Origin: a phage
Length of the DNA stretch: 64,000 nucleotides
Direction: 5' to 3' (one strand)
Sequence record: PX092659.1
Position numbers and translations under genes: made by a program. Numbering within the stretch: position 1 is the first letter of the stretch; each line of letters begins with the position of its first letter. Of the stretch, positions 1,318-63,844 are shown one piece after another. A model generated the notes under the pieces. That model was not told the origin of the DNA, ran no database searches, and was given only the letters and a program-made list of their open reading frames with translations.

Positions 1318-1488
1318 ATAAGTATAGGATGGGATACTACTCAGTTGGTATCCCATTCCTGCATTTTAAAATCCCCTTTACAAATTCGATACGATTATGT
1401 ATACTATATTCATTGATCGGGAGAACTTCTCCCATAATAGAACATAAACAAGAAAAATTAATGCTCTACATGGGGTGTAGGAGATTCT

Positions 1489-42692: not shown

Positions 42693-43004
42693 TTATTCTT
42701 TTTCCGCCAGGCGTTTAGCTTCTTTTTCTACTTCTAATAAAACCTCACTATTAGATAATATTTTAGTAAATGCCTTAAATAAATGAGATGTTGTTTCTAG
42801 AGTGTATGGCATACTGAATCCACTTTTTGTTGGAAACCATTCACCTTCTATATCTTGGAGCCAGTACCTAATTCCTAAGTATAGATTCCCCCTAAACTCA
42901 GATACAGTTAGCCTAACCTGTTGGCCATCTTCTCTTTCCCAGATAACTATGGACTGATCATCTACATGTCCAACATAATCCTGATTTACATTATCTCCCG
43001 ACAT
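42693..43004 (-). CDS. putative PC4-like ssDNA-binding protein
   Basis: 103 aa; RLTVSEFRGNLYLGIRYW...WFPTKSGFS pattern resembles PC4/YdbC-like fold; assignment by motif only. Confidence 0.4.
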   Translation of the reverse strand: MSGDNVNQDYVGHVDDQSIVIWEREDGQQVRLTVSEFRGNLYLGIRYWLQDIEGEWFPTKSGFSMPYTLETTSHLFKAFTKILSNSEVLLEVEKEAKRLAEKE

Positions 43005-43651
43005 TTTATTGCTCCCTGACTTAGGAGATATTCCTCTGCCTCCTCTGGTTGAATATTAAAAAACTCAGTAGAACCATCAAATATTGATTCTGTAAATATC
43101 TGTGTAGTACTAAAAAATCTATGAGCTTTATTTTCTAGATTATACGCTGACTCATCATAAGAGTATACTCCATATATACTCAAGTCCTCCAGATTAGAAT
43201 CTTTTTTGATCTCTAAAAGTCTTCTATCTGGACTTTTAGATGTTCCTATTTTTGTGCCTAGTTGTGGGCTATAAAATACGTATAAATAGCTAGTAGATTT
43301 ACACATAGGGCATGATCTACCAGCATTTTTAACTTTATCTACACTACTAGTCCACGTGTGTCCGTGGGTGCACTCAAATATTGCCGGACTTTGGGAATTT
43401 ATATAGGAGGATATAAGTTTTATACCTTTAGTACTTAACTGTTGATTTATGACCTCTACAGTTAGTTTAGCTTTGCCACTACAATAAGGGCAGCCACTAC
43501 CTTTCCGTATATTACTTAAATATCCCTTCCATTGATGACCTTTTGAACACTCAAATATAGCGGGTGTTCTTATATTAGCCCATTCACTCACTATATGAAA
43601 ACCTAGTGGCTCTAACTCTTTATTTATTTGCTCTTCTGTTAATTTTTTCAC
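42986..43651 (-). CDS. zinc-ribbon plus T5orf172/GIY-YIG-like putative homing endonuclease
   Basis: 221 aa; two repeats ending in CPYC/CPMC; C-terminal YLYVFYSPQLGTKIGTSKSPDRRL...GSTEFF; GTG start; paralog of 1489..2163 and 54845..55708. Confidence 0.6.
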   Translation of the reverse strand: MKKLTEEQINKELEPLGFHIVSEWANIRTPAIFECSKGHQWKGYLSNIRKGSGCPYCSGKAKLTVEVINQQLSTKGIKLISSYINSQSPAIFECTHGHTWTSSVDKVKNAGRSCPMCKSTSYLYVFYSPQLGTKIGTSKSPDRRLLEIKKDSNLEDLSIYGVYSYDESAYNLENKAHRFFSTTQIFTESIFDGSTEFFNIQPEEAEEYLLSQGAIKCREIM

Positions 43652-44415: not shown

Positions 44416-44472
44416 ATTTTATATTTCCTTAATTAAGAATTAAACAGAATAGTTCTTTCAAACTATGAGAAT

Positions 44473-44501
44473 ATTATATCAAGAATTATAGGATTAAGCA
44501 A
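44473..44501 (-). promoter_or_regulatory. T5-type early promoter
   Basis: minus strand TTGCTT(44501-44496)-17 bp-TATAAT(44478-44473). Confidence 0.6.
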
Positions 44502-44518
44502 CTGAAATTTTTAAGTAG

Positions 44519-44794
44519 TTACTCCACTAGGCCAACAGCGAGCATATCATCAATGCTGGCAACCTCCCAATCGTCCGCAATAGCTTCGCATACTGTTAAT
44601 GAAACAACCTCGCTATATGGATAGTTACCGGCTACCCAGGTATGCTGAGTAGCTACATCCGAGTCAGCATCTAAAGTTAGTAACACTAAGCCGTTATTAT
44701 CGTTATCCCAGCTTCTGCGATATAGTGTTTTTACTTCCCCATCTTTAAGTAAATCAGTTAGTTTACTCACGGCGTTTTCCTTTTTCTTTATCAA
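44519..44794 (-). CDS. hypothetical protein
   Basis: Track ORF 91 aa with TTG start; a GTG at 44770 with SD AAGGAAAA overlapping the upstream stop is the more likely start (83 aa). Confidence 0.35.
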   Translation of the reverse strand: MIKKKENAVSKLTDLLKDGEVKTLYRRSWDNDNNGLVLLTLDADSDVATQHTWVAGNYPYSEVVSLTVCEAIADDWEVASIDDMLAVGLVE

Positions 44795-45467
44795 GTTTCA
44801 AGGCAGCCTTAACAGCTTCGTTAATCAGTGTGATAACTTCTTCCCGGGACCATTTGTACCCCAGAGACTTTACATCAACCCCTAACTTTTCCAGATGTTT
44901 AACAGAAGCCAGCTCGTAATTCATATAATGAACGTTCTGTTGTTTGCCTTCCGATAGTAACCAGACTCGATAACAACCAACAGGATTATCCATTGCTTTT
45001 TTGATTTCACCGATACACTGGTATCCAGGAACCCAAACTAGTTCTCCAACTTCAAATTCTTCTGCTACAGCATCATCAGGAATAATTGGAGGATTCAATG
45101 GATCTACAATATCGTTCAAACGAAGTAGAGCACCATATCGTTCCAGAACAGATTTAACCATTGCTACAGAGCGATAATTACGATCGGCAATCTCTTCAAA
45201 AGAATCGCCAGATAGATACTGTTCAATAACGTTGGCCAACTCAATACCTTCAATGAGTGTACCACGTTTCTTTTTCTTCATCTCAGCAACTTGAATCTGG
45301 CGGTCTTGCCATTCTTCAATCATCCTTTCCATAGTTGGGTTGGATGATACACCGAGCATTTCACATGCTGCTTTCTTAGTACCACCGTTCTCCAGATGCT
45401 CTATAACTTTTTTAAAGACTTCATCCGGGATTTCATGGATATGTTTTTTTCTGCGAGAACCAGCCAT
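44763..45467 (-). CDS. putative helix-turn-helix DNA-binding protein
   Basis: 234 aa; N-terminal HTH-like segment (GTKKAACEMLGVSSNPTMERMIEEW); driven by PN25-like promoter with SD GAGAGGAG. Confidence 0.5.
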   Translation of the reverse strand: MAGSRRKKHIHEIPDEVFKKVIEHLENGGTKKAACEMLGVSSNPTMERMIEEWQDRQIQVAEMKKKKRGTLIEGIELANVIEQYLSGDSFEEIADRNYRSVAMVKSVLERYGALLRLNDIVDPLNPPIIPDDAVAEEFEVGELVWVPGYQCIGEIKKAMDNPVGCYRVWLLSEGKQQNVHYMNYELASVKHLEKLGVDVKSLGYKWSREEVITLINEAVKAALKLDKEKGKRRE

Positions 45468-45498
45468 ATTTAAACTCCTCTCTCAAATTTATGAATCT

Positions 45499-45527
45499 AT
45501 TATACAGAAAATTTTTCCTGAAAGCAA
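45499..45527 (-). promoter_or_regulatory. strong T5 early promoter, PN25-like
   Basis: minus strand reads AAAAATTTATTTGCTTTCAGGAAAAATTTTCTGTATAATAGATTCATAAATTTGAGAGAGGAG; TTGCTT(45527-45522)-17 bp-TATAAT(45504-45499); near-identical to the T5 PN25 promoter as I recall it. Confidence 0.8.
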
Positions 45528-45535
45528 ATAAATTT

Positions 45536-45769
45536 TTACGATTCCTTGAGTAAAGAAGAAAGTTCAGCATATACTTTATCTAACTCAAACCCTATGCGAA
45601 GAGATACGTTAGTCCTCCGTTGTTTAAGTAACCACTCGGATATGTTAGGGATACCAGCTAATCTATGTGGTACCACCCTACATAGCTTTTCCGAAGTGTC
45701 ATAAACAGGAACTTTACGTTCTTTTACTGGGAACTTCCTTGTTTCCCATTTCTTATTCTTCACTGTCAT
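45536..45769 (-). CDS. hypothetical small protein (questionable)
   Basis: Track ORF 45536..45877 overlaps HNH gene by 125 nt; internal ATG at 45769 gives 77-aa product MTVKNKKWETRK... Confidence 0.25.
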   Translation of the reverse strand: MTVKNKKWETRKFPVKERKVPVYDTSEKLCRVVPHRLAGIPNISEWLLKQRRTNVSLRIGFELDKVYAELSSLLKES

Positions 45770-46283
45770 ATCTCTCCGAGGGATTAAATTCACCAAACAG
45801 CTCTTTAACTCCCCTAAGGTATAGCTGATGGGCTTCTTCCGGGGTATCTCGTCTACCAAAAATATGTTGCTTTCCATCGCAGTAAGCGTAGGCCATATAC
45901 CTATTACCTCGTTTTACAACTCCAGTGAATCCGGTAGAATTAGTAGAACACTTCTTATTCTTCCCATTTTCGGAATAGGTAGCCTTACGTAAATTATCCC
46001 ACAAGTTGTTTAAACTATCGCCGTCTTTATGGTCAATAGTTTTACCCCCAGGATCTTCACCTGTCTTTATAAACCAGATTATTCTATGGGCTAAGTAAGC
46101 TGTCCGCTCCCCATTTATCGTAAACTCTAGCTGTCTCCCAGTTTTCATTTTGGAGCCCGCTACCTTTCCCTTCCTTGGGCCAGATAACCAAATTAAGTCC
46201 CCAGTACTTTCGTCATACCTAAGCTTTTCTAGGATAAATGCCATAGGAGGCATTGGTTTATGCATTTTCATTAGTTGCTCCAA
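45753..46283 (-). CDS. HNH homing endonuclease with AP2-like domain
   Basis: HNH core AHRIIWFIKTGEDPGGKTIDHKDGDSLNN; AP2-like FTGVVKRGNRYMAYAYCDGKQHIFGRRDTPEEAHQLYLRGVKELFGEF; start overlaps 3' end of origin-binding gene. Confidence 0.75.
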   Translation of the reverse strand: MEQLMKMHKPMPPMAFILEKLRYDESTGDLIWLSGPRKGKVAGSKMKTGRQLEFTINGERTAYLAHRIIWFIKTGEDPGGKTIDHKDGDSLNNLWDNLRKATYSENGKNKKCSTNSTGFTGVVKRGNRYMAYAYCDGKQHIFGRRDTPEEAHQLYLRGVKELFGEFNPSERYDSEE

Positions 46284-49643: not shown

Positions 49644-49672
49644 ATTATAGCAAGATTTTGAGCATCATGCAA
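49644..49672 (-). promoter_or_regulatory. T5-type early promoter
   Basis: minus strand TATAAT(49649-49644) followed by ATTTATATTGAATTGAGAGA start region; weaker -35 TTGCAT(49672-49667). Confidence 0.55.
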
Positions 49673-55736: not shown

Positions 55737-55765
55737 ATTATACTAAACATTATCCACCATGTCAA
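55737..55765 (-). promoter_or_regulatory. consensus sigma70 promoter
   Basis: minus strand TTGACA(55765-55760)-17 bp-TATAAT(55742-55737), then SD GGAGAAGAG and ATG 55708. Confidence 0.7.
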
Positions 55766-55902: not shown

Positions 55903-55931
55903 TTGCTTTTTACTGTATATATTGGTATAAT
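55903..55931 (+). promoter_or_regulatory. T5-type promoter upstream of phoH (divergent from 55737..55765)
   Basis: TTGCTT(55903-55908)-17 bp-TATAAT(55926-55931) with TG at -15/-14 (extended -10). Confidence 0.65.
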
Positions 55932-62968: not shown

Positions 62969-63444
62969 TGTCGGTTTTCCACATTTACACAGATGGTGCT
63001 TGTAAGTCTAATCCGGGTCCAGGTGCTTGGGGTTTTATTGTCTATGATGATAACGACGATCGTTTAGGTTCTAAATCTGGTTATAATCCTAAAACTACAA
63101 ATAATGAGATGGAACTCACAGCTATTGTAGAAGCTCTACGTTGGTCTGTTAAAAAAGATAATAGACCAATTGCTATCTATACTGACTCTGCTTATTGCAA
63201 AAATGGTATGGAAAGTTGGATGTTTTCTTGGCAAAGGAAAGGCTGGAAGAAAGCAGATGGTGAAGTTCCTCTTAATCTAGAACTTTGGCAGGAAGCATTT
63301 AAATTAACACAGCAGTATATCAACTTTCATAATACTAACCCTACTTTTATTAAGGTTAAAGGACATTCTGGTATTAGTGGTAATGAAGCTGTAGACGCCT
63401 TATGTAACACAGTTATTACTGAAGCTGAAATGGCTGAGATGTAA
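62968..63444 (+). CDS. rnh: ribonuclease H
   Basis: RNase H catalytic motifs HIYTDGACKSNPGPGAWG (Asp), NNEMELTA (Glu), IYTDSAY (Asp), GHSGISGNEAVD; ATG 62968 (track starts at TTG 62956). Confidence 0.85.
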   Translation: MSVFHIYTDGACKSNPGPGAWGFIVYDDNDDRLGSKSGYNPKTTNNEMELTAIVEALRWSVKKDNRPIAIYTDSAYCKNGMESWMFSWQRKGWKKADGEVPLNLELWQEAFKLTQQYINFHNTNPTFIKVKGHSGISGNEAVDALCNTVITEAEMAEM

Positions 63445-63464
63445 TAAATAAATTAAAAATTCTC

Positions 63465-63493
63465 TTGCTTAAAGCCCTCTAATTTAGTATAAT
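63465..63493 (+). promoter_or_regulatory. T5-type promoter flanked by inverted repeat
   Basis: TTGCTT(63465-63470)-17 bp-TATAAT(63488-63493); AAAGCCCT (63471-63478) and AGGGCTTT (63512-63519) flank the -10 and SD. Confidence 0.65.
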
Positions 63494-63520
63494 ATTCGTA
63501 TTGAAAGTGAGGAGGGCTTT

Positions 63521-63799
63521 ATGCGGATTTATAACTTAAATTCATTAGGATTTAAACCATTGAGAAAACGTGCACAATCACCTCGTCAAATAAGAAAGGC
63601 TAATATTGGTGAGCCAGAAACACGTCTTCCACCTCCTCCAGAACAACGTTTAGTTTATCTGGATGAAGAATTAGCCGAACGCGAAAGAAAAGCTCAAGAA
63701 GAGATTGAGCGTAAGAAAATGTGTACTGCTCCAGCATATAATAAAGGAGCGTATCAATATGTTTCCGATGCAGAACAAGCCAAGATGGTTGGTAGATAA
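63521..63799 (+). CDS. hypothetical protein
   Basis: 92 aa; SD GAGGAGG; Pro-rich centre, charged helical segment. Confidence 0.4.
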   Translation: MRIYNLNSLGFKPLRKRAQSPRQIRKANIGEPETRLPPPPEQRLVYLDEELAERERKAQEEIERKKMCTAPAYNKGAYQYVSDAEQAKMVGR

Positions 63800-63815
63800 T
63801 TTTTAAAAAATTCAT

Positions 63816-63844
63816 TTGCTAAACGCTTCAAATTCTTGTATAAT
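63816..63844 (+). promoter_or_regulatory. T5-type promoter
   Basis: TTGCTA(63816-63821)-17 bp-TATAAT(63839-63844) then ATAAATTGA start region. Confidence 0.65.

Follow-up and report, generated by a model that had tools for sequence, protein, structure and literature searches.

The T5 early promoter PN25 is a strong sigma-70 promoter. It binds RNA polymerase very rapidly, its open complexes are very stable, and its rate is limited at promoter escape, a step on which the initial transcribed sequence has a modulating influence; when its "downstream sequence region" (+3 to +20) is replaced (antiDSR), full-length RNA falls about ten-fold (PMC12464699). The highest kon was found by Brunner and Bujard to be that of PN25, as reported at second hand in PMC12464699. 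In the GenBank record of T5 (AY543070), the feature "promoter P-N 25" occupies 75 nt at 63043..63117, directly before gene D2 at 63122..63826, and the sequence of PN25 has been printed as "T5N25" (bioRxiv 10.1101/042432), as "PN25" in primer IM103 (mBio PMC4447248) and again under the T5N25/PN25 name (bioRxiv 10.1101/2022.08.30.505822). Strong expression in E. coli has been obtained from PN25 in many published constructs, and its derivatives drive pQE vectors and tetR cassettes. Several other T5 early promoters, namely PN26, PK28a, PH207, P31A/B and PD/E33, resemble PN25 in having AAAWTT at about -43, a TTGCTx -35 box, a spacer of 17-18 bp and TATAAT. The early promoters other than PN25 likewise have an A/T-rich discriminator and often a (C)ATAAATT start, while their spacers, transcribed regions and downstream genes are unlike those of PN25. 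An ATATT-like discriminator is common to the T5 early promoters (Klimuk et al. 2020, PMC7472727).

We compared these promoters with a site in a 64,000-nucleotide stretch of phage DNA (sequence record PX092659.1), analyzed over its full length and referred to here as the window. A preliminary description made from the letters alone had pointed to a near-exact copy of PN25 on the minus strand, quoted as the 63-nt string AAAAATTTATTTGCTTTCAGGAAAAATTTTCTGTATAATAGATTCATAAATTTGAGAGAGGAG. The string is present exactly as quoted, once only, on the minus strand at 45475..45537; the range given for it, 45482..45540, had the right place and ran 3 nt too far at the 5' end of the string and 7 nt short at its 3' end, an immaterial difference. 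Aligned to the published, labelled T5N25/PN25 sequence, the string is identical at 62 of 63 positions, the single mismatch being T to A at -20, in the spacer; with one mismatch in 63, identity is not substantially lower than had been claimed. The elements of the site are as follows.

45529..45537, minus strand: A/T tract AAAAATTTA, about -45 to -37, UP-element-like (read directly; alignment to T5 PN25)
45533..45537, minus strand: A-run within the A/T tract (read directly)
45522..45527, minus strand: -35 hexamer TTGCTT (read directly; identical to T5 PN25)
45505..45521, minus strand: 17-bp A/T-rich spacer TCAGGAAAAATTTTCTG, in which A for T at -20 is the sole difference from the published PN25 core
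45499..45504, minus strand: -10 hexamer TATAAT, perfect consensus (read directly; unchanged in 28 of 28 relatives with a D2 identity of 88% or more)
45493..45498, minus strand: A/T-rich discriminator AGATTC (read directly)
45492, minus strand: putative +1, an A, 7 nt downstream of the -10 box (homology with N25 templates)
45473..45492, minus strand: predicted initial transcribed sequence ATAAATTTGAGAGAGGAGTT, +1 to +20 (identical to N25)
45475..45484, minus strand: Shine-Dalgarno sequence GAGAGAGGAG, 7 nt before the ATG (read directly; conserved in relatives)
45467, minus strand: start codon ATG of D2, seven bases after the 63-nt string
44763..45467, minus strand: gene D2, 234 aa, the D2 orthologue, placed as in T5

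Against the longer, 75-nt AY543070 feature the window shows 71 matches, 3 substitutions and one 1-nt gap; the differences lie at -53, at -47 (A to G), in the A-tract, which is one A shorter, and at -20 (T to A). The match is not a chance one, because BLAST of the T5 P-N 25 feature against the window returns E = 1e-30. What the two promoters have in common is their place before D2, the -35 box, the spacer length, the -10 box, the discriminator, the +1 to +20 region and the Shine-Dalgarno sequence; what sets the window apart is the pair of substitutions at -20 and -47, the A-tract shorter by one base and a leader with three T's (GGAGTTTAAAT), in the genome of a different Tequintavirus. This leader element (45471..45474, minus strand) has its three T's in the window, in BF23, in most relatives and in the template of bioRxiv 10.1101/2022.08.30.505822, whereas AY543070 has GGAGTTAAAT, with two T's, between the Shine-Dalgarno sequence and the ATG of D2. 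The departure of GGAGTTAAAT from GGAGTTTAAAT may reflect a difference between strains or one that arose in sequencing the T5 record.

The site also has the hallmarks of its promoter class, with an upstream A/T tract, a TTGCTx -35 box, TATAAT and an ATATT-like discriminator, AGATT agreeing with the ATATT motif at four of five positions. TTGCT is a recurrent form of the -35 box among T5 early promoters, and the same A-tract precedes most of the T5-type promoters in the window; at this site, the stop codon of the upstream open reading frame, TAA at 45538..45536, supplies the tract's first two A's. A generic sigma-70 scan of the window did not list the PN25 site, because TTGCTT agrees with TTGACA at only three of six positions, which is a limitation of the scan and not evidence against the promoter.

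The surroundings of the site are those of PN25 in T5. The plus strand of T5 corresponds to the minus strand of the window, the flanks of the site run collinear with T5 for several kilobases at 89-93% identity, and the site lies directly upstream of the D2 orthologue and after the T5.110 homologue, as in T5. The same gene arrangement is found in BF23, in 30 IMG/VR contigs and in hundreds of T5-like genomes. The T5 lineage proposed in the preliminary description was likewise borne out: a 261-nt query around the site retrieved 465 phage records, all T5-like, from hosts that include Escherichia, Salmonella and Klebsiella among others, the best being 98-99% identical and the gene under the match being annotated "D2 protein" or "helicase". 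Since these matches are all T5-like and the nearest records to a 12-kb query are 92-96% identical over 85-96% of the query, the window is, on sequence similarity, that of a T5-like phage (Tequintavirus), distinct both from T5 itself and from every record in the collection searched. The PN25 find fixes the identity of the window, as a Tequintavirus whose minus strand is the T5 plus strand. From these comparisons, we consider it very probable (about 95%) that the site is orthologous to the T5 early promoter PN25, lies in its native place before D2 and is a promoter for the host sigma-70 RNA polymerase. The feature is in this sense already known, being PN25 in its natural context in a relative of T5.

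The position of the transcription start can be read across from N25 templates, in which the first C of AUAAAUUUGAGAGAGGAGAC lies at +20 from the start site. On an N25-derived template that retains TATAAT, six bases and then ATAAATTTGAGAGAGGAGACC, RNA polymerase supplied with ATP, UTP and GTP only stalls "+20 base-pairs from the TSS", which places +1 at the A that starts ATAAATTTGAGAGAGGAGACC. With the same group's related +36-stall N25 template, the nascent RNA hybridises with an oligonucleotide complementary to AUAAAUUUGAGGAGAAU. By homology, we infer that transcription in the window starts at the A at 45492. Host sigma-70 RNA polymerase would bind through the A-tract, the TTGCTT -35 box and the TATAAT -10 box 17 bp downstream, the upstream A-tract probably being contacted by the alpha-CTD, and transcription from 45492 would yield an mRNA with a 25-nt leader and a strong Shine-Dalgarno sequence. 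This mRNA would carry D2, a predicted tandem-HTH DNA-binding protein, followed by an overlapping small gene. Promoter activity, start site and strength at the window site are all inferred here from the published work on T5 PN25.

The neighbouring elements that bear on the extent of this transcript are these.

45536..45769, minus strand: T5.110 homologue, the upstream open reading frame, whose stop codon abuts the promoter
44519..44770, minus strand: T5.112 homologue, 83 aa (T5.112 = 252 nt; phrog_643), whose GTG start overlaps the D2 stop (GTGAGTAA)
44447..44521, minus strand: PN26 orthologue, driving D3, with a -35 TTGCTT at 44501 (74 of 75 positions identical to the T5 PN26 feature)

Because its GTG start overlaps the D2 stop codon, the T5.112 homologue is probably co-transcribed with D2 from PN25 and translationally coupled to it, and the PN26 orthologue likely marks the end of the stretch served by PN25 alone. 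In Pfam, the T5.112 homologue (listed as 44519..44794, minus strand) reaches 16.9 bits (E 0.0095) with a Tad2-like (Thoeris anti-defence 2) domain, a weak match that falls short of the cut-off of 25, and PHROG 643 bears the name "transcriptional regulator". Upstream of PN25, an open reading frame listed with 113 aa (45536..45877, minus strand) probably has only 77 aa, with its start at 45769 as in T5.110, because its PHROG match spans residues 39-113. Further upstream, between the origin-binding-protein gene and the T5.110 homologue, sits an HNH endonuclease open reading frame (45753..46283, minus strand) that matches Pfam HNH_3 at E 2e-13 and corresponds to T5 hegI. On the other side of D2, a 221-aa open reading frame (42986..43651, minus strand) matches phrog_681 (E 4e-49), phrog_559 (HNH endonuclease) and phrog_18411 (homing endonuclease); it lies in a block of ~780 nt that, between the homologues of T5.114 and T5.115, takes the place of ~130 nt of T5, and is probably, from its sequence matches, a homing-endonuclease insertion absent from T5.

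The product of 44763..45467 had been called an HTH protein, and this description is supported as a predicted fold. AlphaFold, run on D2 with 28 homologues, gave a confident model (pLDDT 83.9): two three-helix HTH units span residues about 15-67 and 74-110, residues of about 143-182 form a small Tudor/SH3-like beta barrel, and a long C-terminal helix follows. In Pfam, the only match was to HTH_28, whose 20.9 bits fall short of the cut-off of 25; nothing useful for D2 came from NCBIfam or from comparing its sequence with solved structures, and a whole-chain Foldseek search with the model found no match at E < 0.001. Tested for a significant match to an HTH family or fold, D2 does show one, and it looks like a tandem-HTH plus Tudor/SH3-like DNA-binding protein. 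D2 also matches PHROG 3611 strongly, a family whose name, "helicase", is an inherited label shared with RefSeq. We found no support for this assignment: D2 has no Walker A motif and no helicase-like match, and it does not show the P-loop/RecA-like ATPase core with Walker A and B motifs that a helicase would have. The name "helicase" that has spread for D2 in RefSeq and PHROGs is therefore unsupported.

PN25 is one of many such promoters in the window. The architecture had been said to recur at about a dozen sites, in good agreement with the 13 sites that we found to combine a TTGC-type -35 box with TATAAT across a 17-18 bp spacer; T5 promoter architecture is seen at about 18 sites in total. 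These come from a scan anchored on the -10 box, which replaced one filtered for upstream AT of at least 0.8 that had missed PN25 itself (AT 0.7). The motif TTGCT-N18-TATAAT occurs 10 times, compared with 0.12 expected from shuffles, and none of 100 shuffles reached 10. Most of the T5-type sites have an upstream AAAWTT tract and many an ATAAATT start. The TTGC-type sites all fall within 31.8-63.9 kb, in the early region, and, as in T5, switch strand near 53-56 kb. The corresponding part of T5 has 26 annotated promoters, and 17 of these map onto the window, among them PN26, PK28a, PK28b, P31A, P31B, PH207, PG25 and PJ5. The T5 nrdD-side promoter features did not map onto the window by BLAST, and we take the nrdD/phoH region to have diverged on that account. 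In the region corresponding to nrdD/phoH in T5, the window has a divergent pair in which a perfect consensus sigma-70 promoter (55737..55765, minus strand; TTGACA, 17 bp, TATAAT) stands back-to-back with a T5-type promoter (55903..55931, plus strand).

To gauge conservation, 46 viral contigs encoding D2 relatives were taken and their upstream regions compared with the window. The core from the -10 box to the Shine-Dalgarno sequence, CTGTATAATAGATTCATAAATTTGAGAGAGGAG, is identical in 26 of the 28 IMG/VR contigs whose D2 is at least 88% identical, and in the two exceptions (L010 and L012) the sole difference is an additional GA in the GAGAG run. Among alleles of the 63-mer, the T5 form is present in 13 contigs and the window form in three (L006, L008 and L026), so the window form is a natural allele; the -20 A, the -47 G and the A-tract shorter by one A are all three natural alleles, present in other T5-like phages. 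The differences among relatives cluster in the spacer where it adjoins the -35 box and in the 3' half of that box. Even in two more distant phages, with D2 68% and 74% identical, the sequence before D2 comprises a TTGCTT or TTGCAA box, 17 bp of spacer, TATAAT and a start region of the form (C/T)ATAAATT. Judged from these alignments, the pattern is the one that selection on promoter function predicts.

The upstream limit of the promoter is also a limit of homology in some relatives. When L006, L020 and L028 (about 1400..1460) are compared with window positions 45538..45570, homology reaches precisely as far as the A-tract's upstream edge, beyond which these contigs have other sequence in place of the end of the T5.110-like open reading frame. 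The promoter edge is here a mosaic (recombination) junction, and the promoter therefore behaves as a conserved module at such a junction.

PN25 is in such wide use in vectors and strain engineering that the string could in principle have come from an expression vector or engineered construct of the pQE type, as a contaminant of the assembly or an insertion in it. The pQE-type "T5 promoter" (PN25 with lac operators) and the PN25-tetR cassettes have the same origin as the window site and share its A-tract, -35 and -10 boxes, but the engineered versions have a synthetic RBS and, in the spacer and/or downstream, lacO or tetO, whereas the window has no lac or tet operators at the site and retains the native spacer and leader, with the D2 start codon and coding sequence directly after. 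Together with the several kilobases of flanking collinearity, the recurrence of the arrangement in hundreds of T5-like genomes and an allele that departs from the laboratory sequence at -20, at -47 and in A-tract length while matching natural alleles, this native context rules out vector contamination, leaving such an origin a negligible probability. Another unlikely reading grants that the promoter functions in vitro and holds that in the infected cell most D2 transcription comes as read-through from the upstream promoter that serves the origin-binding-protein operon (-35 at 49672), the conservation from the -10 box to the Shine-Dalgarno sequence then reflecting mainly constraints on the leader, on translation or on regulator binding. 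Read-through into D2 is possible because our scan saw no terminator-like site on the minus strand from 49672 to 45527, and the conserved block does run on through the leader and the Shine-Dalgarno sequence; moreover, in T5-infected cells primer-extension products were detected for only 11 of 19 promoters active in vitro (PMC7472727). Such a reading has difficulty with the -35 box, -10 box and 17-bp spacing kept in the distant relatives L032 and L034 despite their diverged surroundings, and with the strong expression that PN25 drives in E. coli constructs. Read-through, or a constraint on leader or regulation, may possibly be an addition to promoter function and not a replacement for it.

We also considered that a phage regulator, perhaps D2 itself, uses the spacer as its operator, in which case PN25 would be regulated and not constitutive. 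A near-palindrome can be read directly in the spacer (CAGGAAAA/TTTTCTG), the region in which relatives vary includes the adjoining spacer, D2 is a predicted DNA-binding protein, and the early transcription of T5 is known to be switched off at a late stage (PMC7472727). Six contigs (L017, L021, L022, L024, L028 and L029, at about 1441..1453) carry a perfect palindrome, TTGCA-N3-TGCAA with a TAG or TCC centre, over the -35 box, an allele of PN25 that makes a candidate operator. A search of the window for TTGCA-N3-TGCAA did not find it, however, and beyond the PN25 site of the six contigs it occurs only twice, as a further copy in L028 and as an unrelated one in T5; the A/T runs of spacers readily yield chance near-palindromes, and no motif was shown to recur at other promoters. 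We regard an operator in the spacer as very unlikely. The more specific proposal, that the variation hot spot (the -20 A of the window and the palindrome-forming TTGCATAGTGCAA and TTGCATCCTGCAA of relatives) would represent operator divergence, with PN25 phage-regulated and possibly autoregulated by D2, is if anything less probable still.

As the orthologue of PN25, the site lets the promoter and start site of the D2 operon be annotated on good grounds, with little import beyond annotation. The operator reading, if true, would bear on how T5 early transcription is shut off. Across the T5-like phages, PN25 is conserved as a module, and its natural alleles, which vary at -20, in A-tract length and in the palindromic -35/spacer variant, offer a ready panel for the study of this model promoter.
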